Part shown: positions 7,418 to 61,942 of the stretch, one piece after another
Layout: each line of letters opens with the position of its first letter
Numbering within the stretch: the first letter of the stretch is position 1
From: Thermoplasmata archaeon
GTDB taxonomy: Archaea; Thermoplasmatota; Thermoplasmata; UBA10834
NCBI GenBank assembly: GCA_029864565.1
Contig: JAOTTD010000004.1
Span: 6,727-70,726, forward strand
Direction: 5' to 3'
DNA: 64,000 nucleotides
The notes under the pieces: generated by a model
The model's database searches: none
What the model saw: only the letters and a program-made list of their open reading frames with translations
What the model was told of the DNA's origin: nothing
Made by a program: the position numbers and the translations under genes

Positions 7418-8019
7418 GCTGCTTGAGGAGATTCGTCGTACTCGGCCATAGGGCGATTACGTCTGCCGATTTCAAATTGGACGACCTCAGCGGGTCGACA
7501 GGCAGGTTGGACATCCTTCTGCGATGCGTCAACTCCGCATTCTTCATATCACACGATATCAGACGGGATGTCGAGATTACGCTAATGCTATTGGGTGCGC
7601 CGAACCCCCCGAAAACCATAAGGATCGTCGGCTCCGAGGTGAAGTACCTGAACCCCGACGAGAGGAGCACAGCGGCGCTCATACGGAACGCCTTGCTCCA
7701 AAAGCCAGGTGGAGAGAGGAGGACATCTCCTGGCATATATGTGTCGGACAGGAGCTACAGTGAAGTGTTGTCGAACATACACAAGGAGTCACAGATGCAT
7801 TATCTCAAGGAGGATGGGGAGGACATCGGAGCCTGCTCCTTCGGAGAGGACAACACATTCGTGCTCGGGGACGATCAAGACCTCACGGAGGAGGAAGAGA
7901 AGACGCTGATGTCTTACGAGCCAAAGAAGCTGTCACTCGGACCCATAAGCTATCATGCAGATCACTGCGTCACAGTGGTGAACAACGAACTTGACCGAAG
8001 AACGGCACACTCACGCTGA
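7414..8019 (+). CDS. trmY: tRNA (pseudouridine54-N1)-methyltransferase TrmY (SPOUT, DUF358)
   Basis: GRLDILLRCVNSAFFISHDIRRDV and HADHCVTVVNNELD match my recollection of M. jannaschii TrmY. The start may be TTG at 7423 (MRRFVVLGHRAITS). Confidence 0.85.
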   Translation: MSCLRRFVVLGHRAITSADFKLDDLSGSTGRLDILLRCVNSAFFISHDIRRDVEITLMLLGAPNPPKTIRIVGSEVKYLNPDERSTAALIRNALLQKPGGERRTSPGIYVSDRSYSEVLSNIHKESQMHYLKEDGEDIGACSFGEDNTFVLGDDQDLTEEEEKTLMSYEPKKLSLGPISYHADHCVTVVNNELDRRTAHSR

Positions 8020-8442
8020 TGAACCGGCAATCGCATGGGGGTCGGACGCGTGTTCGTCCCCGCCATTGCCATTGTCTGGCAGTACATCGTATTTCAAGAC
8101 GAAGCGACCGTTGGAGAAGCGTATCACGGCCGATTTGAGCTTGCACCGATAAAGACGAACCCTCCTGCCTTTGTAGACCTCTTTCTCGCGATCGACGGAT
8201 ATCAGCCCGACCTGCTCAAGCTCGTGAATCCTGCGATAGCACGCAGCAATGGGTATCCTGCACACCTTGCTCAACCTCTGAGCGGAAACAGGGGATTCGT
8301 ATGTGTAGGCGAGGATCTTCTGCGAGTAATCGTCCGCGAGAAGTCTCGATACGGTCTTGGATCGGTCTTCCGGTGTCATCGCATCCTCAATGAAAAGAGT
8401 CATTCGGGCATTTAAGGTGGTTTTCTTCAGGTTATCAGTCAT
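8011..8442 (-). CDS. Winged-helix (ArsR/TrmB-like) DNA-binding protein, paralog of 2791-3192
   Basis: SAQRLSKVCRIPIAACYRRIHELEQVGLISV. The C-terminal half also parallels the paralog (FSNGRFVLKY vs LHNGRLRIQM). Confidence 0.6.
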   Translation of the reverse strand: MTDNLKKTTLNARMTLFIEDAMTPEDRSKTVSRLLADDYSQKILAYTYESPVSAQRLSKVCRIPIAACYRRIHELEQVGLISVDREKEVYKGRRVRLYRCKLKSAVIRFSNGRFVLKYDVLPDNGNGGDEHASDPHAIAGSSA

Positions 8443-8673
8443 GATAACACACTATGCATATCCAGGCAGGCCCTTCTCACGTGTCGATCTGCGGAAATTC
8501 GGTTTGACGCGGAATTGTGTTGATTCCTTCATTCTGAAGTGAATCGGGATATTTCCATGCCGAATTCAAGCCGGTTGATCTATCCTTGGCAAGAATCCTT
8601 ATCTCCTGCTGAGAGGATGAGCCGGCAAATGGAAATGGCCATGAGTGATTGAGACTTGGATGAGGTGAGCGCA

Positions 8674-9447
8674 ATGACGGAAATGAATTTCAGAGAGATT
8701 GGAGAGCTTTTGGCGACTGCATTTCGATTGACAACACGGCCGCTGGCAGTATACGGATCTGAAACTCTGCCCTCCGGTACTGTCCATGTTCCGGAAGTGA
8801 ACCGGTGCCTTGCCGCTTCATTGTACAAGATGGCGGCCGAAGAAGAGCTATCTGCAATCTACGTCACTGGAGACTCACGGGAAGGTTGTTGCCCAGGAGG
8901 ATTAACTCATACAGGATTCCTACCTGGAAATGAATTCACCAAATACTTCGTATCCACGGGAACAAAGGATTTCAGGGAAGGGGCAGCAGAATATCTGAAA
9001 TCTAGCCCGGAAATCTTTGAACGGTGTCAGGCGGCGTTAGGCAAGATCACTCCGCCAGGCAAGTATCTCATCATCCAGGCATGCGAAACGCTTCCCGATA
9101 GGATGCCCGAGGTCAGGTCGATTTGCTGTTTCGGCGCCGCCGAGCAGATCCGGAATTTGGCGGCACTGGTCCATTTTGACCGCGACGACCCATTCTCACC
9201 GGTGATTGTTCCGTGGGGTCCTTCATGTTCGACCTTTATCTCATACCCGGCTGGAATGTGTGAGAAAGCACCAAAGAATACTGCATTTATGGGTCCCGCG
9301 GACCCTACACAAAACAGGAACATCCCCCCAGAAATGATGGCACTCGGAATTCCAGCCGAAATGGCGGTGAGGATGGTTGGAAATCTGGGCCTTTCATTTA
9401 TTAGCAGGAGACCACAAGTTGCATTTCCCAATCATGAAAGAGGGTGA
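8674..9447 (+). CDS. DUF169-like protein (uncertain)
   Basis: About 257 aa. Cys-containing blocks (EGCCPGG, GPSCSTF) and overall length resemble DUF169 as I recall it. ORF track start is 8656; the ATG at 8674 is likelier. Confidence 0.4.
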   Translation: MTEMNFREIGELLATAFRLTTRPLAVYGSETLPSGTVHVPEVNRCLAASLYKMAAEEELSAIYVTGDSREGCCPGGLTHTGFLPGNEFTKYFVSTGTKDFREGAAEYLKSSPEIFERCQAALGKITPPGKYLIIQACETLPDRMPEVRSICCFGAAEQIRNLAALVHFDRDDPFSPVIVPWGPSCSTFISYPAGMCEKAPKNTAFMGPADPTQNRNIPPEMMALGIPAEMAVRMVGNLGLSFISRRPQVAFPNHERG

Positions 9448-9701
9448 AGGGGTCTGCGAGGGGTAATTGACCATTCTCTTGGGGAAAAAGGCCACAAGAG
9501 CGAGGGCCAGTTATACCACTGCGTGTCTAAACTCGACGGTGAGTGCGTTCAAATCGGCCGTCAGACACCCATCGAGGACGATTTCCCTGAATCATACTTA
9601 ACGCAACAGTGGCGTGACATGCATCATTACTTGTATGAAGACCCGTTAAACCCCTTTGCGATAAGTGCTATGAGTGCTTTCGCGAAAAAGGAGAAGAAAC
9701 A

Positions 9702-9887
9702 ATGAGTTACGGCAATTATGGAGGCGGCAGCCGTAGACGTGACTCAGGTCCCAGGGAGATGCACAAGATAAAGTGCTCTGACTGCGGAGCTGACGCGGAG
9801 GTCCCGTTCAAGCCTACAGAGGGAAAACCGGTCTACTGCCAGACTTGCTTCCAGAAGCACCGACCCCCACGAAGAGACAGATTCTGA
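9702..9887 (+). CDS. Small CxxC-x17-CxxC zinc-binding protein
   Basis: CSDC followed by exactly 17 residues (GADAEVPFKPTEGKPVY), then CQTC. Gly/Arg-rich N-terminus. An AGGAG lies upstream. Confidence 0.6.
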   Translation: MSYGNYGGGSRRRDSGPREMHKIKCSDCGADAEVPFKPTEGKPVYCQTCFQKHRPPRRDRF

Positions 9888-10180
9888 GCGTCCAGTTCAT
9901 TTTCATGAATTATCGTTCAATTCGTTCGAATCCGCAAATCACTTCGAGATCCTTTTCATTCCTATCGTATCAGATTCGAGCTTCATCGATCAGAAACGGA
10001 TTCTGTCCCCGAATCGGCTTACTGGCTATAATTCTGATTTATCACCCATGATGACTTCCCGATGAATAGGGCACACACTGACGAAGGGGCCGAGAGGCCC
10101 TAGTGACCTGGTTTAATCACAGTTTCATCCGCGAAAACATTATCTGCCCATGACATATCTCCTCATGAGAAGTGGCGAAC

Positions 10181-11518
10181 ATGCCAGTATGTCCTTTGGA
10201 TTTCAGATACGGCCGCGCTGAGATGAAGGCCATTTTCGACGAGGAAAACCGCCTCCAGAAGCTTCTCGACGTCGAAGCAGCACTTGCCTTAGCCCATGCA
10301 AAGGTTGGCAACATCAAGCAGGACCACGCTGACATCGTGAAGAAGACCGCCTCCGTGAGGTTCGTCAAGCTCTCTAGGGTGCAAGAGATTGACGCCGAGA
10401 TCAACCACGAAATCACAGCGATAATCAGGGTCCTAAGCGAACAATGCGGTGAAAGCGGCAAGTACGTCCACCTGGGCGCCACATCGAACGACATACTCGA
10501 CACGGCCGCGGCGCTTCAGCTAAAAGACGCCATCTCGATAATCGAGAAAGGTTTGGAGGCCCTGAGGCTGACTCTCGCGAAGCGGGCGAAAGAGAACCGG
10601 GACACCATAATGATTGGCAGAACGCACGGTCAGTACGCATTGCCTATTACGTTCGGTCTCAAGATCGCCAACTACGCGCTCGAGATTCATAGACACGAGC
10701 AGAGGCTGTGCGAATGCAAAACCAGGGTATTGGTGGGCAAGATGAGCGGTGCCGTAGGCACCGGTTCTGGTTTCGGAGCGATGGCGGTGGAGATTCAAAA
10801 GGCAGCCATGGCGAACCTGGGATTGGGGGTGGAAGATGGTCCAACACAAATTGTAGCCAGGGACCGATACGTGGAGCTCATGGCGGTTCTCGCCAACATC
10901 GCGACTTCGATAGAGAAGTTCGCCACAGAGATAAGGAATCTACAGCGTGGCGAAATAGGCGAGGTCGCCGAACCGTTCGACGACGTGGTCCAGGTTGGCA
11001 GCTCCACCATGGCTCACAAGCGCAATCCTGTCATGGCGGAAAACGTCTGTGGTCTCGCGCGTATCGTTCGCGGATTCATGACGCCTGCGATGGAGAGCGC
11101 GATTCTATGGCATGAACGCGACCTAACCAACTCCTCAGCCGAGAGATTTTTCATCTCCCATTCGTTCATTCTTCTCGATGATATAGTCGCGAAGACGGAG
11201 AAGATGTTCAGGAACCTCGTTGTCAACAAGGATAGAATGCTCGAAAATCTAAGAAAGGCGGGAAGTGTGATAATGGCCGAGTCGGTAATGATGGCCTTAG
11301 TGTCCAAGGGGATGGGACGCCAGGATGCCCATGAACTAATCAGGAGGTGCAGCATGGACTCGCAGAAGGCATGCGAGGATTTCAAATCATACTTGATAGC
11401 GAACGAGAGCGTCGCGTCACTTCTAAGCGAAGAGGAGCTTGATGGCGTTCTCGACCCGCATTCGTACCTTGGCAGTGCTGGGGCCACTGTGGACAATATA
11501 ATGAGGATCGTCGCATAA
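10181..11518 (+). CDS. purB: Adenylosuccinate lyase
   Basis: PLDFRYG at the N-terminus, the fumarate-lyase signature region GSSTMAHKRNP, and about 445 aa. ORF track start GTG 10172; the ATG at 10181 is likelier. Confidence 0.92.
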   Translation: MPVCPLDFRYGRAEMKAIFDEENRLQKLLDVEAALALAHAKVGNIKQDHADIVKKTASVRFVKLSRVQEIDAEINHEITAIIRVLSEQCGESGKYVHLGATSNDILDTAAALQLKDAISIIEKGLEALRLTLAKRAKENRDTIMIGRTHGQYALPITFGLKIANYALEIHRHEQRLCECKTRVLVGKMSGAVGTGSGFGAMAVEIQKAAMANLGLGVEDGPTQIVARDRYVELMAVLANIATSIEKFATEIRNLQRGEIGEVAEPFDDVVQVGSSTMAHKRNPVMAENVCGLARIVRGFMTPAMESAILWHERDLTNSSAERFFISHSFILLDDIVAKTEKMFRNLVVNKDRMLENLRKAGSVIMAESVMMALVSKGMGRQDAHELIRRCSMDSQKACEDFKSYLIANESVASLLSEEELDGVLDPHSYLGSAGATVDNIMRIVA

Positions 11519-11564: not shown

Positions 11565-11639
11565 GGGCCCTTAGATCAGTGGAAGATCGCTTCCTTCGCA
11601 AGGAAGAGGCCGTGGGTTCAAATCCCACAGGGTCCACCA
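11565..11639 (+). tRNA. tRNA-Ala (anticodon CGC), CCA encoded
   Basis: The cloverleaf folds by hand: acceptor GGGCCCT/AGGGTCC with the G3:U70 alanine identity pair, D stem GATC/GATC, anticodon stem CTTCC/GGAAG with loop TTCGCAA, and T arm GTGGG-TTCAAAT-CCCAC. 72 nt plus CCA. Confidence 0.93.
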
Positions 11640-11641
11640 TT

Positions 11642-11667
11642 CCTGAGAAAAGGCCATAGGGGCGGAG
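11642..11667 (+). repeat. Motif copy 1: CCTGAGAAAAGGCCATAGGGGCGGAG, immediately 3' of tRNA-Ala
   Basis: Read directly. Near-identical copies at 15864-15888 and 16608-16632; degenerate copies at 14047-14072, 15677-15700 and 18687-18710. Confidence 0.85.
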
Positions 11668-11708
11668 AGAAGGCCTTAAGGCATCGAAGGCGATTCCGAC
11701 CTGAGGAG

Positions 11709-12107
11709 ATGGTCTTTACGAGGACGGGCGCTCTGATTGTAGTGGTATTGGGGATTGCGATTGGCGCGATTGGACTGATTACAGCGGTCGTCTTCCAGAA
11801 TGCTGCCAATTCAATGAGCATTTGGGAGAGGTTCACAAGTCCAAGTGAATACGATTTCAACATGGAGATGGTGGGCATTGGATGGGTAGTCGCAATCGTG
11901 GGCGGAATCATGTTCATCATAGGATTGGTGCTGCTTCTCGTATCTGTGCAGAGCTCTCAGGGGAAGAGCAATGCCCAGGCCGGTATGATGTCGCCCGCGC
12001 CCGCCGCAGATGGCATGGGCGGTTTCTGCCAGTATTGCGGAAGGCCAGTATCCCCTGACGCAGTATGGTGCCCTGGATGCGGCAGGTCACTGAAGAAACA
12101 GCCTTGA
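11709..12107 (+). CDS. Small membrane protein with C-terminal zinc ribbon
   Basis: Two hydrophobic helices (ALIVVVLGIAIGAIGLITAVVF, VVAIVGGIMFIIGLVLLLV), then CQYCGRPVSPDAVWCPGCG. Confidence 0.5.
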   Translation: MVFTRTGALIVVVLGIAIGAIGLITAVVFQNAANSMSIWERFTSPSEYDFNMEMVGIGWVVAIVGGIMFIIGLVLLLVSVQSSQGKSNAQAGMMSPAPAADGMGGFCQYCGRPVSPDAVWCPGCGRSLKKQP

Positions 12108-12242
12108 TTTTGACCCTAAAGCCTCTCAGAGGCATTCAGGTGCACCTGTACCTCATCGACCATTGCGCCAGGTTCTTGGCCGAATCGAGAAATCGTTGGC
12201 GTTTGCGGAGGGAATAGGTCAGGAAACTCATCCTTCTGAGCC

Positions 12243-13025
12243 CTATACGCCCTGGAGACCCTTTGATAAACTGTAGAGCTTCCATCCGAAGAGGAGAGGG
12301 AAGATGATGAAGGCGACAAGCACGAAGGGGATGACCGAGTCGGAGTCGACCCCAAAGACGGACATCCCTGCGACCACAGCCACCCCGAGCACCATACTCA
12401 CCCCGCCAAAGCGCTTGCCAAAGGCTGGGGACCCGAGCATGGCCACTCCGAGGACGATGAAACCTATCGCCATGAGGATGAACCCTACGGTGTCCGTCTC
12501 ATTGAATATGCCCTGGGTCGCCTGCCACATGAGGACGAGTGTCGCCTGCTCCTCGGGGGTCGTTCCGGGAGCGTGATAGAGGTCGGAGATCGGGTTGAAA
12601 GCAATATTCGGGAGCGCTCCGACAGCGAGCACTGCGAGACCCACAAGGCCCAGGCCGCTCCCGAAGAGAGCGGGCGCGACGCTCGTCCCGCGGAGAGCCC
12701 GATACAAGGCAAGGAAGAGTGTGACCAACAAGATGACGGCCACCAGGTAGAGGCCCTCCCCCACCGCAATGGCCGCTCTGTCCTCGGGGAACCTCATGAC
12801 CAATCCCTCGGGGTCGGCAGGCTCCTGTGGCACCAACGCGAGTAGTATGACGGCTGTAAGAATGAAGAAGATTGGTACCAGCATTCCGGCCAGACCGCCC
12901 CATCGCAGAACGCTCTTCTCGTCTCCCATGTACTTCCCAGCCGAGATAACGGAACTTTTCCTATATAACATATCGCGAATCCCGAAAACGATTTCTCGGA
13001 AGTCTCGCGCCTCTAGTATGATCAA
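12243..13025 (-). CDS. Polytopic membrane protein, function unknown (possibly DUF4386-like)
   Basis: Five to six hydrophobic segments. The likelier start is Met33 (12929, MGDEKSVLRWGG...). Confidence 0.5.
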   Translation of the reverse strand: MIILEARDFREIVFGIRDMLYRKSSVISAGKYMGDEKSVLRWGGLAGMLVPIFFILTAVILLALVPQEPADPEGLVMRFPEDRAAIAVGEGLYLVAVILLVTLFLALYRALRGTSVAPALFGSGLGLVGLAVLAVGALPNIAFNPISDLYHAPGTTPEEQATLVLMWQATQGIFNETDTVGFILMAIGFIVLGVAMLGSPAFGKRFGGVSMVLGVAVVAGMSVFGVDSDSVIPFVLVAFIIFPLLFGWKLYSLSKGLQGV

Positions 13026-13231
13026 TCCCAGAAAACCGAGAAACGGCTCATCAATTCATGCGCATATCTTTGCACACATGAACGAGCTATCTGGGAGGCC
13101 GGGCATGCGCCGATGGGCCCACCACTCATCCGGGTCGAAAGTCCAAGAATGCTGTATTGCACCCCATCGAATACAGTCGTCCCGTGGGGAGTGATGGCGG
13201 TTGAAAATAGGAAAAGCGAAAGGGGTTTGGT

Positions 13232-13327
13232 CATCTCTCGATTCTTCTCCTCGACGAAGATGCCCTAACAAGGGCATTTTGGGGTGTGAGCCAGTCAGTT
13301 TCGTGGTCCCTTATCCCAATGTGGCCA
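13232..13327 (+). repeat. Degenerate copy of the ~100-nt repeat ending in a decayed tRNA-Ala 3' core
   Basis: Same block order as 13943-14043 and 15758-15858: ATCTCTCGA..CCTCG, hairpin ATGCCC-N6-GGGCAT (13260-13277) followed by TTTGG, AGCCAGTCAGTTTCGTGG, then TTATCCCAATGTGGCCA (12/17 match to the core). Confidence 0.7.
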
Positions 13328-13380
13328 TATTCGAAAGTGGTTTATATGCGCGCTGACTTCATGACGTGGGGGAGTTCGAG

Positions 13381-13926
13381 ATGAATATTCTAAGGCTAAG
13401 TGCTGCCATCTTCTGTTCAGTTGCCCTTCTGTCCATTATGCTCGTAGATACACCATGTTCTGTAGAAGCACAAGGAGAACATCTGCTTACGGACACTGTT
13501 TTGATTCCAGGAAGGACCGACTACTCTGTTGAGATCACCATGGATGTGAATGAACGATTATTCTGCCGCTCAAACACCGACTATGAGACTCCACTTCGCC
13601 TTCAGTTCGCCAATCCCGACGGAACCTTGAGGCTCATGTCCACCTCAACACAAGGAAGCGATTACACCGAGTACTACTATGTGACAGTGAGGGAGAATTA
13701 CTACGTCTATTTCGATACGGGCGCGGAGGGAGTCTATCGAATAACATGGGAGAACACAAATTTGGCGAATGCTTCACTGGACTATTTTGTCGTGAACGCA
13801 GGATACATTCCACCTGAAGAAGACCCCCCACTTGTTAATGCGGCAGTGCTTGGGCTGGGGATTGTTGTGGCTATTGAAGCGGCAATCATGGTGGTATTAC
13901 TAACCCAAACACGCAAAAGGAAATGA
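13381..13926 (+). CDS. Secreted, C-terminally anchored protein, function unknown
   Basis: N-terminal signal-like helix (LSAAIFCSVALLSIMLV), a Tyr/Thr-rich beta-type middle, and a C-terminal TM plus basic tail (VVAIEAAIMVVLLTQTRKRK). Confidence 0.5.
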   Translation: MNILRLSAAIFCSVALLSIMLVDTPCSVEAQGEHLLTDTVLIPGRTDYSVEITMDVNERLFCRSNTDYETPLRLQFANPDGTLRLMSTSTQGSDYTEYYYVTVRENYYVYFDTGAEGVYRITWENTNLANASLDYFVVNAGYIPPEEDPPLVNAAVLGLGIVVAIEAAIMVVLLTQTRKRK

Positions 13927-13942
13927 TACAAAGGGTTTTCAC

Positions 13943-14043
13943 GCTATCTCTCGATACGGTTCCTCGGCAAGAAATTCCGGTCCCTGGAATTTTCGACCAC
14001 TAGCCAGTCATCTTCATGGCACCTAATCCCACAGGGTCCACCA
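13943..14043 (+). repeat. 101-nt direct repeat ending in an exact 19-nt copy of the tRNA-Ala 3' end (att-like)
   Basis: 91/101 identical to 15758-15858 by hand alignment. Internal hairpin AAATTCC-N7-GGAATTT at 13972-13992. Core AATCCCACAGGGTCCACCA at 14025-14043. Confidence 0.9.
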
Positions 14044-14046
14044 ATT

Positions 14047-14072
14047 CTGAGAAGAAGCTGTGGGGGCAGAAG
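14047..14072 (+). repeat. Degenerate motif copy (CTGAGAAGAAGCTGTGGGGGCAGAAG)
   Basis: Sits in the same position relative to the tRNA-end core as copies 1 and 4. Partial identity only. Confidence 0.5.
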
Positions 14073-14231
14073 GGCTTTAGGAGACGGGGGCAGACGACAA
14101 GTTCATCATTTCCATCCCACAAGGGGAATGGAGACCCACATCAACCCGGCACTAACCCCAGGGAAGACCGACTGACTCTGAGTCGGTCGCTCAGATCCCG
14201 TGTCAGGAGTCGACTCGGCGGACAATCACGG

Positions 14232-15623
14232 TCAGCTCAACAAGGTGTCCACGCACTCAGCAAACACCGCGGTGTGTCTGTCAACGTCCTTCGCTGTCGT
14301 AGATGGCGAGATCAGAGCCATGTTGTGGAACGGCGTCATGAGTATGCCTCTGTTCAGCATCATGAGGTGCAGAAGCTTCTCGAGCTCAGCATCCTTTGCC
14401 ATGTCGGCTTCAGCCCCGTCTCTCGGTGCGTTCTGACAGAAGTGGTACTCGATGCGCACTCCCAAGCGGGCGACATGCCACGGGACTCCCCTGCTCTTGA
14501 TCACGTCGTCGACGCCCTTCTCGAACCGTTCAGCCAGCGGCATCATTCTATTGAAGGCCTGCTTGGTAATCACCTTTTCAAGAGTCGCCCTCATCGCGGC
14601 AACCGCGAACGCGTTGCCTGTCAGCGTGCCTCCGAGCCCGCTCTCGTCCGTGCCATCGCTCAATATGCGTTCCACAATCATGTCCGATACATATTGGCTC
14701 ACTCCGAACGCAGCAACGGGCACCCCGCTCGCGAGCGGTTTGCCCATGGTTATCATGTCGGGTTTGAGACCCTGGACTCCGGTGTAGCCCCCCACGCCGC
14801 AGCATATGGTGTGGGTTTCGTCTATGATCAGAAGAGTCCCGGCCCTGCTGGTCAGTTCCCTGAGCGCATCATGATAGCCTGGGTCCGGGAGTATGATGCC
14901 CCGATTGGTCATCGCCGGTTCCATCAGGACGCATGCGACGTCCTCTGGCGACAGAGCCTCTTCCAGCGCACGGACGTCGTTGAACTGCACGGCCTTCGTG
15001 GTAGTTGACGGAGGCACGGGTGGTCCTATGTTCCCTCCCCGGGGAACGACAGCTCCGCCTTCCAAGTTGACGAGGGTCTCGTCCACCGTGCCGTGATAGC
15101 AGCCGTGCACTACAAGGACGTACTTCCTCTTCGTGACCTCCCTCGCAAGCCTTATCGAGAATCTGTTCGCGTCAGTGGCGGTCATCGCGATCTGCCAGTA
15201 CGGCAATCCAAACCTCCGAGCCAGCTCCTCGCCCACCCAGATGGAGTCCTCGGTTGGCAGCATCGTCGTGATGCCTCTGGAGACCTGCCTCCGCACGGCA
15301 TCGACCACAGGCTTTGGTGAATGGCCGAACATGGAGCCCGTATCTCCGAGGCAAAGGTCGAGATATCTGTTGCCGTCCACGTCCTTGAGGAAAGCACCCC
15401 TCGCCTCGGAAACGAAGACGGGGTAGGGCCCGGCCCATCGGACCATCCAGTTCATTGGAACTCCGGCGAGAAGCGATTTCTTGGCTCTTTGAAACAATGC
15501 ATTTGACTTCGGTCTGGATTCCACGAATCTCTGCTCTTCCTTCGCCTGCAATTCTCTCATTTGAGACCGATTAATGCTGACCATGAGCGATTCCTTCTTA
15601 TTGCCAGATTGCATGTGGTCCAT
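14232..15623 (-). CDS. Class III (PLP-dependent) aminotransferase, glutamate-1-semialdehyde aminomutase-like
   Basis: DGNRYLDLCLGDTGSMFGH, the IIDETHT block, and a candidate PLP lysine in TMGKPLASGVP. About 463 aa. Confidence 0.85.
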   Translation of the reverse strand: MDHMQSGNKKESLMVSINRSQMRELQAKEEQRFVESRPKSNALFQRAKKSLLAGVPMNWMVRWAGPYPVFVSEARGAFLKDVDGNRYLDLCLGDTGSMFGHSPKPVVDAVRRQVSRGITTMLPTEDSIWVGEELARRFGLPYWQIAMTATDANRFSIRLAREVTKRKYVLVVHGCYHGTVDETLVNLEGGAVVPRGGNIGPPVPPSTTTKAVQFNDVRALEEALSPEDVACVLMEPAMTNRGIILPDPGYHDALRELTSRAGTLLIIDETHTICCGVGGYTGVQGLKPDMITMGKPLASGVPVAAFGVSQYVSDMIVERILSDGTDESGLGGTLTGNAFAVAAMRATLEKVITKQAFNRMMPLAERFEKGVDDVIKSRGVPWHVARLGVRIEYHFCQNAPRDGAEADMAKDAELEKLLHLMMLNRGILMTPFHNMALISPSTTAKDVDRHTAVFAECVDTLLS

Positions 15624-15676
15624 TTATCATTATGCGGAAAGAAGGCCGACAGTAAGCAATGCTTGTGGCAAGATCC

Positions 15677-15700
15677 GCGAAAAAGCTCATAGGGGAGGAA
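15677..15700 (+). repeat. Degenerate motif copy (CGCGAAAAAGCTCATAGGGGAGGAA)
   Basis: Shares GAAAA-GC-CATAGGGG-GGA with the consensus. Lies just upstream of the third ~100-nt repeat. Confidence 0.45.
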
Positions 15701-15757
15701 ATGTAAAGGGTTTCGTGAGGGGCATTCAACCCCTCCTAGAAAGACAACGGGTTTGAG

Positions 15758-15858
15758 GCTATCTCTCGAGTTGGTTCCTCGGCAAGAAGTTCCGGCCTGT
15801 GGAATTTTGGAGCACTAGCCAGTCATCTTCGTGGCACCTAATCCCACAGGGTCCACCA
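15758..15858 (+). repeat. 101-nt direct repeat ending in an exact 19-nt copy of the tRNA-Ala 3' end (att-like)
   Basis: 91/101 identical to 13943-14043. Hairpin AAGTTCC-N7-GGAATTT at 15787-15807. Core at 15840-15858. Confidence 0.9.
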
Positions 15859-15863
15859 TTTCG

Positions 15864-15888
15864 CTGGGAAAAGGCCATAGGGGCGGAG
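15864..15888 (+). repeat. Motif copy (CTGGGAAAAGGCCATAGGGGCGGAG)
   Basis: Read directly. Follows the tRNA-end core exactly as copy 1 follows the real tRNA. Confidence 0.85.
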
Positions 15889-15990
15889 GGAGATTATTCC
15901 CGCACAGAAAGGAGTCTGAGAGCAAGCAAGAGACGAAATTGCCGAACCAATTCGGGGTCAACTTAATTAGTATATGCCTAGCTTCCCGGC

Positions 15991-16479
15991 ATGATGAGTG
16001 AGAAGATGGGCGATGTGGCCGTCCCTGATGAGGAGATGGATGTCATCAGCACTCCTGGCTTTGCCTGGAGAGTGGGGCTGTCCATACTCGTCGTGTTTGG
16101 CTGGCTAGCATTCTTGATAATATGGCTGTTCTTCTATGCTGAGGATTATGATGTGTGGCAGAACATCGCAATCTTCCTAGTCTCCATAATCGTCGGCATA
16201 GGCGTTCTTGCGGCTGCTTGGGTCAGTTGGGGCATCAAGTACGCGTCCAAGTCCGGCAAACAAGACACCAAGTTCAAGAAACCGAAGGGGGCGTGGATCT
16301 TGAACACTGTTGCTGGATTTGGCTGGCTCTTATTCCTCATAGTATGGCTTTACTTCTACGCGGGAGACTATAGCGGCTACCAGAACCTGGCCATCTTCAT
16401 CACATCACTTCTCGTGCTTGGAGCTGTAACGAGCAGCGCATGGGTTGTTCGATGGATTAGAACTTCAAGAAAGTGCTAG
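15991..16479 (+). CDS. Four-helix membrane protein built from an internal tandem duplication
   Basis: FGWLAFLIIWLFFYAEDYDVWQNIAIFLVSIIVGIGVLAAAWVSWGIK aligns with FGWLLFLIVWLYFYAGDYSGYQNLAIFITSLLVLGAVTSSAWVVRWIR. Confidence 0.55.
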   Translation: MMSEKMGDVAVPDEEMDVISTPGFAWRVGLSILVVFGWLAFLIIWLFFYAEDYDVWQNIAIFLVSIIVGIGVLAAAWVSWGIKYASKSGKQDTKFKKPKGAWILNTVAGFGWLLFLIVWLYFYAGDYSGYQNLAIFITSLLVLGAVTSSAWVVRWIRTSRKC

Positions 16480-16607
16480 GTATCGAGGAAGACATGTCTC
16501 GTTGATCGGAATGAGTTGAAGCGGTTTTTGCAGACGGAGACTCTGAACTCGAACGAAGCCGGCAGATAAGGTAGCCTGGCGGGTCTAGCGGCTGCATCTA
16601 GATTCCT

Positions 16608-16632
16608 CCTGAGAAAAGGCCATAGGGGCGGA
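16608..16632 (+). repeat. Motif copy (CCTGAGAAAAGGCCATAGGGGCGGA) without an adjacent tRNA-end core
   Basis: Read directly. Identical over 25 nt to copy 1, with a CCT duplication just upstream. Confidence 0.85.
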
Positions 16633-16721
16633 AGGAAGACTTATGTGAACCACCCTCAATCACAGTCCCTATGGGCAAGAGGAATTGGAAGGAAGAGGTT
16701 GTTGTCGCCAAGGGGAACGAA

Positions 16722-17384
16722 ATGGCTTCTGATATTAAGCCCGTTTACTTGGGCCGCATTATTGGCAATTGTTACATTGTAAGAACAGATATCGGTTCTA
16801 TCCTGATTGACACCGGAAGAGCCTCTAAGCGCGCCAAACTTGAAAAGGAACTTCGTGGCGCGGGCTGCAAACCAGGCAATCTCAACCTTATCATTTTGAC
16901 ACATGGAGATTTTGACCACACGGGCAATTGCGCTTACCTCCGCGAAAAGTTCGGCACAAAGATAGCCATGCACTATGACGATTCTGGAATGGTCGAACGC
17001 GGAAATATGTTCTGGAACAGAAAAACCGGAAATCTTACCATCAGAGCAATCGTCAATGTCTTCTTCAGGATAAAAAGATTCAAACCCGATTTTACTATAG
17101 ATGAGGGATACGACCTCTCCGAATATGGGCTCAATGCCAGAGTTCTTCATCTTCCGGGACACTCAAAGGGCTCGATTGGGATTCTGACAGCCGGTGGCGA
17201 CCTGTTCTGCGGTGACCTGTTCACCAATACGAACGAACCAAAGCTCAATTCCATTATCGACGACCCAGTGGAAGCGAGTGCCAGTGCGAAGAAACTGAGA
17301 AGATACGAAATCAAAACAGTCTATCCTGGCCATGGAAAGCCTTTTCCTATGAGCTCTTTGACTAGAAGTCTAAGGGATCCATGA
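16722..17384 (+). CDS. MBL-fold metallo-hydrolase
   Basis: ILTHGDFDHTGN (HxHxDH-type metal motif) and later LPGHSKGS and PGHG. ORF track start 16671; the ATG at 16722 (MASDIKPVYLG) is likelier. Confidence 0.8.
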   Translation: MASDIKPVYLGRIIGNCYIVRTDIGSILIDTGRASKRAKLEKELRGAGCKPGNLNLIILTHGDFDHTGNCAYLREKFGTKIAMHYDDSGMVERGNMFWNRKTGNLTIRAIVNVFFRIKRFKPDFTIDEGYDLSEYGLNARVLHLPGHSKGSIGILTAGGDLFCGDLFTNTNEPKLNSIIDDPVEASASAKKLRRYEIKTVYPGHGKPFPMSSLTRSLRDP

Positions 17385-17557
17385 GAGCACAATCGATAAA
17401 GGAAGAAAAAGGACGTCTGGCTATTCAAGGTGAAGACCCCACAGACTCCGCCATTCTTCCAGCTGATCTCAATCTCCGTCTCTTCCGGCAAAGCGACTGC
17501 TCGAAGATATCTCGCATATGTCCGCATGACCGCCACTGTTCTGCTCTGACGAAGTCA

Positions 17558-18676
17558 TCACTTTGCGCAGATGGCCTTCCTGTGGAACGTGAATGTCCTC
17601 TTCACCTCGAAGCCGACTTTCCTGTAGACTTCCATAGCACTGTGCTTGTTCTCGACTTCGGTATCCACCAAAACTTCGTCGATACCCAGATCTCGCACCT
17701 GGGCCAAGCCCCTCGTAAGCAGCGCGCTGGCTATACCCTTATGCCGCCATCTTTCAACAACACAGACAACCCACGCATGGGCAACCTTCCTGCATGTCCG
17801 CTGAATTTCCTCGTCGTTGACTAGCATCTCCACAATGCCGACAGGGTCGTCGCCATCCCATGCGACCTTGATCAATTCGGGCCTGAAAGTGGACGATCTA
17901 ATCCAGTTGCGATAAGCCTCCTCGCTCCATGTGTACTGATTGAACCACGACTCGCCCAGGAAGCATTCCCTGTAGAGCTCCCATAATTCGTGGTATTCGT
18001 CCTCTTGAGGAGGCCTGACTTCTATCCCCTCAGCCAAGCTGCTGATTGCCACCTCGGATAATCTCTCGTGGGTCATCTCGAGCAGGTGCCAGACAGAGGC
18101 ATAACCCATCGTGTCAACGATGCGCTTCCAGTCGTTCGGCTCATCGTACGTCCAGACCTGCAGGTATTTCTCGTCTGCGAAGTCATGCCTGGAGGATATC
18201 TCCTCAAGGCGTTTTTCGTTATCGTGAAACAGCGCTTCTCGGATTCCCCTGCCCCTCCAAGCAGGAAGGAGATGGACAGAATGAGCGTACACCTTTACCC
18301 TGTCAACCTCGTTGTCCCAGGCTATCTGAGAGTATCCGACCGTGCTCTCGTTGACTTCGACAAAGACTATGTCTAAGCGCGGGTCTCTGCCTTTCACCGC
18401 TGAAAACCGCGCCCTTATCTCCTCTTCAGACTCTACCCAAACGACACCGTCCGCCTTCCAGCTAAGCTGGCTTATTTCAGACATCTTCTGGAAATCTGAA
18501 TCGTCAACGAATGCCCTAAACCGCAGACCCTCCACATTCGGAGTGTCCATCTTGACCGCTATCTCACTTCCTTCATTCAAATTATCCTCATCCAACCGTC
18601 GGTCCAAGTCACTTCGAGCTATCTTGCACGTAAGCGCCTTCTCATATACGAAGTTCGCCCACGCGGCTTCGGTCAA
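17558..18676 (-). CDS. Two-domain GNAT-family N-acetyltransferase (MshD-like architecture)
   Basis: Two acetyl-CoA motif A-like segments: LPAWRGRGIREALF and VERWRHKGIASALL. Confidence 0.75.
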   Translation of the reverse strand: MTEAAWANFVYEKALTCKIARSDLDRRLDEDNLNEGSEIAVKMDTPNVEGLRFRAFVDDSDFQKMSEISQLSWKADGVVWVESEEEIRARFSAVKGRDPRLDIVFVEVNESTVGYSQIAWDNEVDRVKVYAHSVHLLPAWRGRGIREALFHDNEKRLEEISSRHDFADEKYLQVWTYDEPNDWKRIVDTMGYASVWHLLEMTHERLSEVAISSLAEGIEVRPPQEDEYHELWELYRECFLGESWFNQYTWSEEAYRNWIRSSTFRPELIKVAWDGDDPVGIVEMLVNDEEIQRTCRKVAHAWVVCVVERWRHKGIASALLTRGLAQVRDLGIDEVLVDTEVENKHSAMEVYRKVGFEVKRTFTFHRKAICAK

Positions 18677-18686
18677 TAGGCATCCT

Positions 18687-18710
18687 CTGGGAATTTGCCA
18701 TAGAGGAGGA
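18687..18710 (+). repeat. Degenerate motif copy (CTGGGAATTTGCCATAGAGGAGGA)
   Basis: About 17/24 match to the consensus CTGAGAAAAGGCCATAGGGGCGGA. It is the last copy I can find. Confidence 0.4.
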
Positions 18711-18825
18711 TTAGCGATTCTTCCCTTCTGCCTATGTCAGAAGAAGTAAGTCCGGTGCGAGCGTTCTGCCTGGGATCTCTTCGGATGCAATCGGAGCGAG
18801 GAGGAAAAGGCCTATCCTCCAAATG

Positions 18826-19218: not shown

Positions 19219-19926
19219 ATGAAGCGCTCGGACGGCGAGAGCATGGTTCAGAAAGGGGACATCAGGCAAGAGGAAGTCGAGCGGAAGCTGAAACTTGAGT
19301 ATCTCTACGGCGAGAGGGATCGCACGAGAAGACTCCTCGATGATTTGCACACGCTCATTGCTCATATGAACGATCCCAAACTCCATACGAAGGCGTTGCT
19401 GCAAGAAGCTGCTGATGTAATACACAAGGACCTTTGGATAAGGGAAGTCACAATAGGATTGAGGAGCCCTTCGGACAGCAAGTACAGGTACGTTGTAATG
19501 TCTGGGCTTCGCCCAGAAGCGTGGCGGGCGCATGAAGTGATTGAGTACACGCACGAGGAATTCAACGACCCAAGTTTATTCAACGGCAGATGGATAAGCG
19601 AATGCACGAAGGTCTTCCTGGCTGAGGACGAGCCGTTCCTGGAGGGCGAGGAGGAAACCTTCAACCGTCCCATCCTCCTGAAAGCCCGTCGCCGAACGCC
19701 TGACGACTGCATAGAAGGCGATTACCTGGACGTGAACATCACCGCAGAAAACGGGAATTTGGTCGGATGGATCGAAATATCCGGAACGAGAGAAGGCAAG
19801 TTCCCTGATGCGATCTCCATTAGATGGCTTGAACTGATCGCGTCGCTGCTCGCAATCGCATTGCAGCGGGACCGAGAGGGTGAGCCAAAAAGGAAGGTCC
19901 GAGCCATCGACGAGCGCTCTGGCTGA
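19219..19926 (+). CDS. Hypothetical protein, possibly GAF-like sensor fold
   Basis: N-terminal coiled segment, then an alpha/beta region ending GNLVGWIEISGTREGKFPDAISIRWLELIASLLAIAL, which resembles a GAF C-terminus. Weak call. Confidence 0.35.
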   Translation: MKRSDGESMVQKGDIRQEEVERKLKLEYLYGERDRTRRLLDDLHTLIAHMNDPKLHTKALLQEAADVIHKDLWIREVTIGLRSPSDSKYRYVVMSGLRPEAWRAHEVIEYTHEEFNDPSLFNGRWISECTKVFLAEDEPFLEGEEETFNRPILLKARRRTPDDCIEGDYLDVNITAENGNLVGWIEISGTREGKFPDAISIRWLELIASLLAIALQRDREGEPKRKVRAIDERSG

Positions 19927-26273: not shown

Positions 26274-26583
26274 TGCTAGGCTCGACCGGGACGTTCGGCG
26301 TGTCCTTATACACCAAAATCGTCGACAGTGGGGGTGACAGCTGGGGACGTCGTAACCGAGTCTGCGTAGGTCCAGGTATCGACAATGAGGCCTTGTCCAA
26401 GGGGGTTGAAGGTGGCTCTGTGTCCAGCTGGAGGGCGGGACTCTCTGACTTTGTCGCGGGGATCGGGTCAGGCCCTGACGGGAACAGCCTTACCGCGAAC
26501 TCTCAACGCTCCTAGGGTAGCGGGGCCGAGAAGATATCTGGGCTGCCTGCGTGAACGAGGCCGGCAACTCCAGTGGCCTAGCA
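26274..26583 (+). ncRNA. Signal recognition particle RNA (7S / SRP RNA), ~310 nt
   Basis: The 5' TGCTAGGC pairs with the 3' GCCTAGCA. The 5' segment GCTAGGCTCGACCGGGACGTTCGGCG resembles archaeal 7S 5' ends as I recall them. A helix-8-like segment GGGTCAGGCCCTGACGGGAACAGCC compares with the bacterial GGTCAGGTCCGGAAGGAAGCAGCC. No credible ORF, and a TATA lies upstream. Ends are accurate to about +/-5 nt. Confidence 0.75.
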
Positions 26584-48286: not shown

Positions 48287-48371
48287 GCAGGGGTAGCCAA
48301 GCCTGGTCAACGGCGCAAGGCTTAGGACCTTGTCCAGAAGTGGTTCCGCGGTTCGAATCCGCGCCCCTGCA
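48287..48371 (+). tRNA. tRNA-Leu (anticodon TAG), no encoded CCA
   Basis: Acceptor GCAGGGG/CCCCTGC, anticodon stem CAAGG/CCTTG with loop CTTAGGA, a long variable arm (TCCAGAAGTGGTTC), and T arm CGCGG-TTCGAAT-CCGCG. Confidence 0.93.
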
Positions 48372-48442
48372 CCTCTTGTTATACTGAAAGGGCGTTCGAC
48401 GCGAAAGAAACCGCAACCGCCGAGCTGTTCCCAATAGGGATT

Positions 48443-61066: not shown

Positions 61067-61942
61067 CTAAACATCACCCGAGACGATGTAATAACTCGTG
61101 TGGCTGGAAGCCATCTCGCCGGACGTTTTGTCCGAGTCATCCAAGCGCTCCTTGCTGTCCGATATCTCCATGCCTGGTAGTCTGTGCTTGGAGTATTCCT
61201 CCTTGCGATCGTCGATATCCATAGTTAGGTATATCGCCGTGACTTCTATGCTGGAGTGTCCCAGGTTTTGCTGGAGCGTTCTTAGGTCTATGCCTGATTT
61301 CAACGCGTGAACCGCATGAGTATGCCGCAACACGTGCGGATGCCTCTTGTCTTTATCCAGACCGACTTCGGACCCATACTTGTGTATGAGCCGTTCTATC
61401 TGGCGTCTGGACAGTGGTCCTCGTTTGTTCGATACGAAGAGCGGGTCCTTCCTGTTCTTACGTGTACCGATGTAGTCGCGCAGCATCGTCTTGGTCCAAC
61501 CATTGACGATAGGCACCTTGCGTCCCTCGCGATGCCTCTTCGCATGCTGAACCGTGATCTCGCCCGACTCAAGATCCACGTCACCAATTGTCAAGGCCGC
61601 TAACTCGCCGACCCGTATCCCGGTCTCGTATAGCATCTTGATGATCAAGCGGTCTCGCATGCGCCTAGGCGCCTCGAGCAAGCTTTTCAATTCTCCTTCC
61701 TTGAGATACTTTCGCATGGCGGGTCCCATCCCTTGAATCATGCAGACGAATGTCCGACAATCAATCGATTTGTGCCTATTTAAAAATGTCGTATTTTCCG
61801 GCGAAAACGCCCTGGGGCGCGACACTCCCTTCGGTAACCCCCAAAAAGCGTCAACAAATGCCCTATTTGTTGCCGTTTCCTGCCAATCGACCTTCTCATT
61901 TGCCTTATCCAGATGTAGAAGGCGACACAAAGCATGATACAA
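61067..61942 (-). CDS. Tyrosine recombinase / integrase (Xer-like catalytic domain, short atypical N-terminus)
   Basis: The catalytic set is readable: ETGIRVGE (Arg), HVLRHTHA (His-x-x-Arg), GHSSIEVT (His) and AIYL (Tyr). Confidence 0.8.
   Translation of the reverse strand: MYHALCRLLHLDKANEKVDWQETATNRAFVDAFWGLPKGVSRPRAFSPENTTFLNRHKSIDCRTFVCMIQGMGPAMRKYLKEGELKSLLEAPRRMRDRLIIKMLYETGIRVGELAALTIGDVDLESGEITVQHAKRHREGRKVPIVNGWTKTMLRDYIGTRKNRKDPLFVSNKRGPLSRRQIERLIHKYGSEVGLDKDKRHPHVLRHTHAVHALKSGIDLRTLQQNLGHSSIEVTAIYLTMDIDDRKEEYSKHRLPGMEISDSKERLDDSDKTSGEMASSHTSYYIVSGDV

Follow-up and report, generated by a model that had tools for sequence, protein, structure and literature searches.

Known systems and the island behind tRNA-Ala(CGC)

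Stacks of mobile elements adjacent to tRNA genes are known. Archaeal elements that target tRNA genes by means of non-suicidal integrases can form tandem arrays at one site, and integrase loss is known among them (PMC8371274); the smallest cryptic integrated element in a survey of Thaumarchaeota is 2.6 kb long and encodes an integrase (PMC6563490). We analysed a 64-kb stretch of a Thermoplasmata archaeon (64,000 nucleotides of contig JAOTTD010000004.1, assembly GCA_029864565.1; the whole stretch is called 'the window'), in which a tRNA-Ala(CGC) gene is followed by an island of roughly 7.5 kb (11,640 to ~19,150). This island consists of integrase-less one-gene modules, most of them starting with a 35-nt motif, named P'. 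From the tRNA gene downstream, the 3' part of the tRNA is found as direct repeats in a single orientation, three exact and two decayed. What is new with regard to other tRNA-adjacent stacks is the reduction to integrase-less one-gene modules with standardised ends, reordered across species, and we found no published description of arrays of 0.3-1.8-kb integrase-less modules with standard ends. A first, sequence-only reading of this DNA had already pointed out that the segments bounded by the repeats were much smaller than the known archaeal elements targeting tRNAs, and the comparison of 0.7 to 1.8 kb with at least 2.6 kb (PMC6563490) agrees with it.

The locus resembles archaeal integrative plasmids and cryptic elements in its specificity for a tRNA 3' end, in the repetition of this end at both junctions, and in the re-use of the site; as with cryptic integrated elements, intact relatives here carry a rolling-circle Rep and an integrase. 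It differs from archaeal integrated elements by the size of the segments (0.7-1.8 kb in the window, with modules elsewhere down to 0.3 kb), by the absence of integrase and replication genes from them, and by the conserved P' motif of 35 nt. Unlike with SSV-type ('suicidal') integrases, where the att site is within the gene, integration of the type-1 elements described below leaves the integrase gene unsplit. In streptococci, cis-mobilizable elements are integrase-less segments flanked by attachment (att) sites, placed in tandem with an integrase-bearing element, and can be excised with it or by it via alternative att copies, a process called accretion-mobilization. Those bacterial segments span several kb and have a link to conjugation, whereas mobilization is only inferred at the present locus.

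The closest bacterial parallel is found in the tycheposons of Prochlorococcus, where partial tRNAs and fragmented integrases are strewn through tRNA-linked islands (bioRxiv 10.1101/2020.12.28.424599). Both systems use few tRNA targets, newcomers push older elements inward, and the cargo is flexible and adaptive. Tycheposons are bacterial, however, with integration and replication modules and a cargo of up to 10 kb, and the paper reports no short conserved motif heading one-gene modules and no module-level breakpoints (bioRxiv 10.1101/2020.12.28.424599).

Archaeal integrons use IntI and attC, and the text that describes them mentions neither tRNA nor Thermoplasmata (PMC9668308). Likenesses to integrons, and to clusters of attC sites lacking integrases (CALINs), are numerous: cassettes of a few hundred bases, mostly with one gene and mostly in the same orientation; a conserved site at every junction; diverse and largely unknown genes; arrays often without an adjacent integrase; and cassettes common to several genomes. 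Unlike integrons, the island has no IntI and no attC-like fold, its conserved site stands at the 5' end of the module, it is anchored at a tRNA 3' end, and some of its modules are reverse-oriented with TATA boxes of their own. No integron integrase next to an attI site was found in or near the island.

The tRNA 3' end is repeated within a composite unit

The tRNA-Ala(CGC) gene, with its encoded CCA, lies at 11565-11639 on the forward strand (ARAGORN and Rfam, 69 bits). Its last 19 nt, AATCCCACAGGGTCCACCA (11621-11639, core copy A), recur exactly and on the same strand at 14025 (copy C) and 15840 (copy D), and a search allowing up to three mismatches gave no additional copy in the window. In 100 dinucleotide-preserving shuffles the mean number of matches was 0.02 and none reached three, even with up to three mismatches; the repeats are thus not due to chance. 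Two decayed cores complete the series. Core B (13311-13327) is preceded by the same arm of about 105 nt as the exact copies (nhmmer E-value 2.4e-23 for the unit at 13205-13318), and its counterpart in a relative, locus L020 (92% identical; the prefix L designates comparison loci), retains the intact 19-mer. Core F (17435-17453, forward strand, 14 of 19 positions) was aligned by eye: the 19-mer search at up to three mismatches did not return it, and the automatic repeat search flagged its stretch only as a repeat with another site of the window. These searches bear out the exact copies at 14025 and 15840 and the decayed copy at 13311-13327 of the sequence-only reading, as well as its statement that the copies are not tRNA genes, since neither ARAGORN nor Rfam called one at any of the copies behind the tRNA.

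Alignment of the copies revealed a composite unit of about 165 nt, designated P-O-P', in which O is the 19-mer core. P is a left arm of about 105 nt (AAAGGGTTT..ATCTCTCG..TTCCTCGGCAAG, a variable hairpin, then TTTT..CACTAGCCAGTCATCTTCGTGG), the 5' edge and length of which are constant in all copies; P' is the right motif of about 35 nt, CTCGGAAAAGSCCATAGGGGMGGAAAGGCGAT. At copy A, the tRNA itself is followed by P' (11640-11674). Copy B consists of P and the decayed core (13205-13327, with the arm at 13205-13310), copy C of P, O and a diverged P' (13918-14078; arm 13918-14024, core 14025-14043), and copy D of the full P-O-P' (15735-15895; arm 15735-15839, core 15840-15858). Copy E is a P' alone (16605-16640), and copy F a decayed O alone. 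Last comes copy G, a degenerate P', CCTCTGGGAATTTGCCATAGAGGAGGATTAGCGAT, at 18684-18718 on the forward strand, with 15 of 20 positions matching the P' core and 6 of 8 the next block; this tentative assignment was made by eye, the automatic scans having missed it, and the oldest end of the island is probably located here. Including it and the diverged copy at 14044-14078, the island holds five P' copies.

The unit was considered as a possible gene and rejected, because copy-to-copy indels break every frame. The P arm is nevertheless related to the 3' coding end of a class of integrase genes found in relatives, called type 1 below. A scan of the island with Rfam at E-values up to 5 gave nothing for P, the O copies or P', and at the gathering thresholds only the tRNA and the signal recognition particle (SRP) RNA were reported.

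The copies could also be thought of as functional tRNA-like RNA elements, for instance 3'-end processing signals that punctuate transcripts. They do retain the 3' half of the T-stem, the 3' strand of the acceptor and the CCA, and copies C and D have, 9 nt upstream, a GTGG that could pair with CCAC. We consider this explanation highly improbable: ARAGORN and Rfam find no tRNA-like structure at the copies, folding is no better than in shuffled controls, the copies follow genes in both orientations, and the flanking arm is an att arm derived from an integrase gene.

The sequence downstream of the tRNA varies among relatives

A scan for the 19-mer, with one genome per species, yielded 23 loci. Seven were purB-adjacent tRNA-Ala(CGC) genes in Thermoplasmata metagenome-assembled genomes (MAGs). 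For the five of these with purB in the retrieved stretch (L003, L009, L010, L014 and L021), similarity to the window covers purB and the tRNA, and then ends at 11639-11641, or at 11676 where P' is also shared. Twelve further loci were not tRNA genes; several of them are P-O-P' units of other species, similar to copies C and D, and such units are often present several times per 8-kb stretch, in uniform orientation.

The purB gene (adenylosuccinate lyase; 10172-11518, forward strand, Pfam Lyase_1 and ADSL_C) forms the conserved left flank of the site and is syntenic with tRNA-Ala(CGC) in the five loci above and in L134, L150 and L152. Downstream of the tRNA, by contrast with this flank, the sequence is different in every relative: L021 and L134, for example, are 92% identical as far as the tRNA 3' end and then diverge. 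To the right of the island, conservation resumes with a gene for a GAF-domain protein (19219-19926, forward strand). In L003 and L005, homologues of the window from 19219 onward (the GAF-domain gene, with 40% amino acid identity in L003, and a Na/H exchanger) are found only some 1.5-1.9 kb past tRNA-Ala. This short spacing identifies 11,640 to ~19,150 as an insertion-prone variable region. In one MAG (JBFFML01), two contigs with identical upstream sequence (L005 and L008) both stop at the same tRNA-Ala(CGC). The assembly is thus interrupted at the hot spot, in keeping with a population that is variable there.

The island arrangement itself is not an assembly artefact, as it recurs in L154, an independently obtained assembly of this population that is colinear with the window over 20.4 kb, with 99.93% identity and no gaps.

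The sequence-only reading had tied its recombination scenario to two observations. The first was repeat-bounded presence/absence variation among related genomes, which was indeed found, with a break at the tRNA 3' end and differing contents behind it. The second was a link of the 19-mer unit with tRNA-Ala. This link is kept, the unit of L149 forming the distal junction of an element with an integrase gene that overlaps the tRNA 3' end.

Intact elements at the same site

Two kinds of integrase were encountered in the relatives: type 1 (L134, L149 and L146) and type 2 (L001, L012, L018 and L150-L153). The type-1 gene faces the tRNA in convergent orientation, with its final codons antisense to the tRNA 3' end. 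It is whole when integrated (392 amino acids in L134, 370 in L149), the core overlapping only those last codons. A complete integrated element is present in L149, composed of tRNA-Ala, the overlapping integrase, a body of about 6 kb, and P-O-P' at the far end. The unit being the far-end junction there, the P arm of the window corresponds to the attR arm of type-1 elements. P is likewise the far-end arm in L146, where Rep, Mrr and integrase genes lie between flanking P-O units. Around the core of L149 lies a 35-nt inverted repeat, made up of the P arm and the stretch directly behind the tRNA; in the window, the arm of copy D can be aligned with the coding sequence at the 3' end of the L134 integrase gene. 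Such symmetric arms look like integrase-binding sites, and on the basis of this symmetry the P arm probably holds sites of this kind.

The type-2 integrase gene is on the strand of the core and ends just before O-P' (L001, L012, L018). In L150, L152 and L153, the order is purB, tRNA-Ala, rolling-circle Rep, further genes, integrase and O-P', followed by small genes between P-O-P' units; these loci end with Opp-type permease genes, and their chromosomal neighbourhood is that of the window. The Rep-plus-integrase plasmid measures about 6-7.5 kb in these three loci. In L146 and L151, the plasmids are integrated at an O copy within the array instead of at the tRNA. The tRNA-Ala site is a proven hot spot for two plasmid families. 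None of the 19-mer, the P' pattern and the two integrase types had a match in IMG/VR, so that there is no sign that these elements are known viruses. Against the integron-integrase profile of NCBIfam (cut-off 265), the L134 integrase scored 19.7 bits and a Xer-like protein of the window 72, and the L018 and L001 integrases gave no match.

Within the island, a trace of a type-1 element was found at 17435-17542 on the reverse strand. This remnant, the last 36 codons of a type-1 tyrosine integrase, matches positions 330-365 of 365 of the type-1 profile (E-value 1.3e-5; the tblastn match is weaker), and its 3' end overlaps the decayed core F, in the same geometry as the intact genes of L134 and L149. 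This argues that F is an old attL, pushed 5.8 kb away from the tRNA by later insertions.

These intact elements allow another explanation, in which the segments of the island are deletion remnants of integrative plasmids of 6-8 kb, P' is an expression leader (operator or 5' untranslated region), and modules are reshuffled by homologous recombination between P' copies after DNA uptake. The presence of intact 6-8-kb plasmids at the same site in relatives and the persistence of the integrase remnant in the window favour it, as does the integrase loss after integration described in other archaea (PMC8371274). The constant 5' edge and length of the P arm would not be expected from random deletions, and taken together with the observations on P' and on modules given below, this makes decay alone a possible but less likely account of the island.

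Two side observations were made on other recombination genes and other tRNAs. The L146 contig, which carries the type-1 integrase plasmid and several P' copies, also has a serine recombinase (Resolvase) gene at its end (19817-19867). At L133 1669-1742, L039 1732-1804, L136 3705-3779 and L086 598-672, the 3' flanks of tRNA-Val(GAC), tRNA-Pro(GGG) and tRNA-Pro(CGG) genes hold an inverted sequence similar to the P arm (ACTGGCT, a hairpin, AAACCCC), and in the first three of these loci the tRNA is faced by the P' arrays; related elements thus seem to use other tRNAs.

P' is the most widespread repeated element

It is the P' motif, and not the tRNA fragment, that recurs most widely. Allowing up to four mismatches, P' is present in 283 copies in 135 sequences (145 listed loci plus the window), when less than one copy is the estimated expectation by chance. 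In 77 of the 81 listed loci with several copies, all P' are in one orientation, and the median spacing is 731 nt. Conservation is limited to about 33 positions, with about 1.5-2 bits at each of some 30 positions. The proteins encoded by the modules are extremely diverse (119 clusters for 139 proteins); half have membrane-like segments and many contain zinc ribbons.

What precedes P' is variable. Remnants of a tRNA 3' end, derived from tRNA-Ala(CGC), tRNA-Gly(GCC) or tRNA-Leu(CAA), were found in front of 31 of the 283 copies, and a module-end motif designated M0, AAAGGGGTTTGAGCCTCG, in 39 cases, often including the stop codon of the previous gene. Most copies have no recognisable element in front. 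In L142, P' lies 22 nt past a genuine tRNA-Gly gene. By our estimate, tRNA genes around P' loci overall are not enriched above what the total length would predict; it is consequently the remnants preceding P', together with the complete loci, that carry the link with tRNAs. In four loci (L037 6607-6700, L084 1298-1391, L108 2504-2597 and L074 4378-4471), P' is followed directly by a sequence similar to M0 or to the P arm, with no gene in between, as if the module were empty.

In the listed loci, the median distance from the 20-nt core of P' to the start of an open reading frame is 29 nt (interquartile range 23-55), and a Shine-Dalgarno-like GAGG is found downstream of the motif. This fixed short distance from start codons and the GAGG are what the decay explanation would predict of an expression leader. 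On the other hand, P' is far more conserved than a normal promoter or leader, and no conserved RNA structure was detected, neither a consensus structure nor covariation being seen among 43 P' regions. That P' is an ordinary promoter is unlikely, as it has no AT-rich TATA box, a feature that this organism shows at the promoters of its tRNA and SRP RNA and at others, those of modules c2 and c3 among them (see below).

Alternatively, P' and M0 could constitute the recombination site of an undescribed, tRNA-anchored, integron-like capture system of Thermoplasmata, unrelated to IntI/attC. One-gene circles of 0.3-2 kb would then be inserted and excised by a site-specific recombinase, shuffled, and exchanged between species, the P' next to the tRNA being the primary insertion point, and the tRNA-end copies would be by-products of separate plasmid integrations at the neighbouring tRNA. 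The abundance, shared orientation and regular spacing of P', its occurrence behind several tRNA types (Ala, Gly and Leu), its lack of a TATA box and the extreme diversity of the proteins all speak in favour of such a system. Yet no recombinase is consistently tied to P' arrays in the contigs examined, and P' has neither an attC-like folded structure nor an obvious inverted pair of binding sites: in single-strand DNA folds of P-O-P' and M0-P' junctions compared with shuffles, six of seven z-scores were between -1.0 and +1.1, and one was -3.1. We regard this system as possible but tentative.

Modules of the island and their exchange between genomes

The first module, c1 (11640 to ~12227, forward strand), begins with the P' directly after the tRNA and contains a gene for a zinc-ribbon membrane protein (11709-12107); its leader (11645-11696) is 96% identical to that of a different gene in L015. 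Module c2 (12228-13327) comprises a DUF4386 gene on the reverse strand (12243-12929, Pfam), P arm B and the decayed core B; its stretch 12228-13318 shares 92% identity with L020 2439-3531, which retains an intact core. It is followed by c3 (13328-14043, forward strand), with a gene for a secreted or membrane protein of unknown family (13382-13926), P arm C and the exact core C, and by c4 (14044-15858), which is made of the diverged P' (14044-14078), a class-III aminotransferase gene on the reverse strand (14232-15623), P arm D and the exact core D. Module c5 (15859-16604, forward strand) has a P' at 15859-15895 and a gene for a membrane protein with an internal repeat (15991-16479); the direct repeat (16096-16176 and 16318-16398; 81 nt, 72% identical) indicates a two-repeat membrane protein. 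Module c6 (16605-17434, forward strand) starts with the P' that has no core in front (16605-16640) and encodes an MBL-fold hydrolase (16671-17384, Pfam). Beyond the integrase remnant, a GNAT acetyltransferase gene (17558-18676, reverse strand, Pfam) occupies the variable region up to the last P'-like motif, and has no counterpart in the loci of the relatives. Gene calls in the comparison loci were simple longest-open-reading-frame calls. The segments had initially been described as encoding no integrase, replication or virion protein. Domain and integrase searches uphold this, with the refinement that the 36-codon integrase remnant persists at 17435-17542 and that the island extends to ~19.15 kb.

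Judging from sequence similarity, which runs from one P' to the next, the modules act as exchangeable cassettes. The P' and MBL hydrolase gene of c6 (16609-17422) are 95% identical to L024 6033-6846, while the adjacent permease genes are only 66% identical and the neighbouring modules differ. Such a contrast, a module 95% identical between organisms with 66% identical core genes, would not be expected from decay alone. Similarly, c5 (15870-16610) is 95% identical to L025 3095-3837, in a different array. Among the listed loci, 50 of 119 internal similarity breakpoints fall between -10 and +28 nt of the start of P'. This clustering at P', with or without O, favours the integron-like capture system.

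A module of 310 nt (P', a gene of about 80 codons, and M0) was found at seven loci with 88-94% identity, unrelated flanks and precise common ends, preceded in turn by an Ala-type core, a Gly-type core or M0. Modules so small and so precisely delimited are difficult to reconcile with deletion remnants; their presence behind an Ala core, a Gly core or M0, with the P' variant going with the gene, is again what integron-like capture would produce. That the P' variant travels with the downstream gene places the exchange at or just 5' of TCTCG/GAAAAG. P' copies are alike, however, so that the exact exchange point cannot be pinned down, and homologous recombination would leave an identical pattern.

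Between the two assemblies of the window population (L154 and the window), eleven of the 15 single-base differences are in c5 (15864-16404), a concentration of about 100-fold, the other 19.8 kb having only four. The first of those in c5 lies five bases past core D, at the O/P' boundary. Such a replacement limited to one cassette hints at exchange.

Possible history of the island

We propose that the 19-mers are att cores of tyrosine-integrase elements targeting tRNA-Ala(CGC), and that the island consists of stacked insertions whose modules are exchangeable; we give this reading a probability of about 0.7. The stacking of several insertions behind the tRNA, first suggested by the sequence-only reading, is supported by the synteny break, the att arms, the intact elements and the integrase remnant. 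In this scheme, crossover would presumably occur in or near the T-loop, with the element supplying a fresh 3' end to the tRNA. The region from 11,640 to ~19,150 would have been built up by no fewer than four or five insertions at the tRNA, one after the other, each displacing the prior copy of the tRNA end, and everything behind it, downstream. The tRNA-Ala end (copy A) is attL (B-O). From newest to oldest, the order by position would be A (the functional end), B, C, D and F. The P arms of B, C and D would be the conserved attR arms of type-1 elements, the arm repeating, in inverted orientation, the 3' end of the integrase gene found across the core in attP, and F together with the C-terminal remnant of the integrase would be a decayed old attL. 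Modules could be excised and re-inserted via two O copies or via P', with an integrase provided in trans by a resident or incoming plasmid, and modules on the same strand may be expressed by read-through from the tRNA promoter. Candidate routes of exchange are O x O recombination by an integrase in trans, site-specific recombination at P', and homologous recombination between P' copies.

Several points weigh against this proposal. The layout of c4, in which P' is the left-hand and P the right-hand element, is not the direct product of either type of intact plasmid, and c4-type modules would need an additional capture or deletion step. No type-1 or type-2 integrase is encoded in the window (profile and tblastn searches), which leaves current mobility there unproven, and the only recombinase gene in the window, the Xer-like one, is 43 kb from the island. 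The c5/c6 boundary and most P' junctions elsewhere are without O, a recognisable tRNA-end remnant preceding only 31 of 283 P' copies, and O x O recombination cannot explain boundaries of this kind. The order of modules is the same in both assemblies of the population, with no indel. Neither circular contigs nor excised circles were found among the 145 listed loci, which counts against integron-like capture as well. Finally, all comparison sequences are metagenome assemblies, and the P' loci, gathered by exact pattern matches in metagenome contigs (at least 120 loci), are a biased sample.

If modules do move in a site-specific manner, they would represent a second, independently evolved cassette system beside integrons, and a concrete route by which sediment Thermoplasmata trade flexible genes (here mostly for small membrane proteins and zinc-ribbon proteins). 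P' also offers a practical handle: an exact-match scan yielded at least 120 loci, and existing metagenomes can serve to chart the gene pool, host range and dynamics of the system. Were P' only an expression leader, it would still rank among the most conserved non-coding motifs in these genomes, and need explanation.

Other features of the window

The Xer-like gene (61067-61942, reverse strand) encodes a tyrosine recombinase of 291 amino acids (Pfam Phage_integrase, 133 bits). Among NCBIfam models, archaeal XerA comes closest, with 184 bits for a cut-off of 220 and a match to the catalytic half only. The gene borders a stretch of low GC content at 61-63 kb (47.5-50% GC), and could be XerA or part of another mobile element.

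Rfam places the SRP RNA at 26274-26583, and the window is archaeal; identical proteins (MDH3364751-59, locus tags OEM29_) assign it to a Thermoplasmata MAG. ARAGORN also calls a tRNA-Leu(TAG) at 48287-48373, which Rfam does not report at the gathering threshold. On the other side of purB, a stretch of about 1.7 kb (8453-10180), between a helix-turn-helix gene (8011-8442) and purB, is absent from the syntenic loci L003, L009, L010, L014 and L021. It contains a DUF169 gene (8656-9447), and positions 9620-9944 of the window are 84% identical to an unrelated locus, L017.

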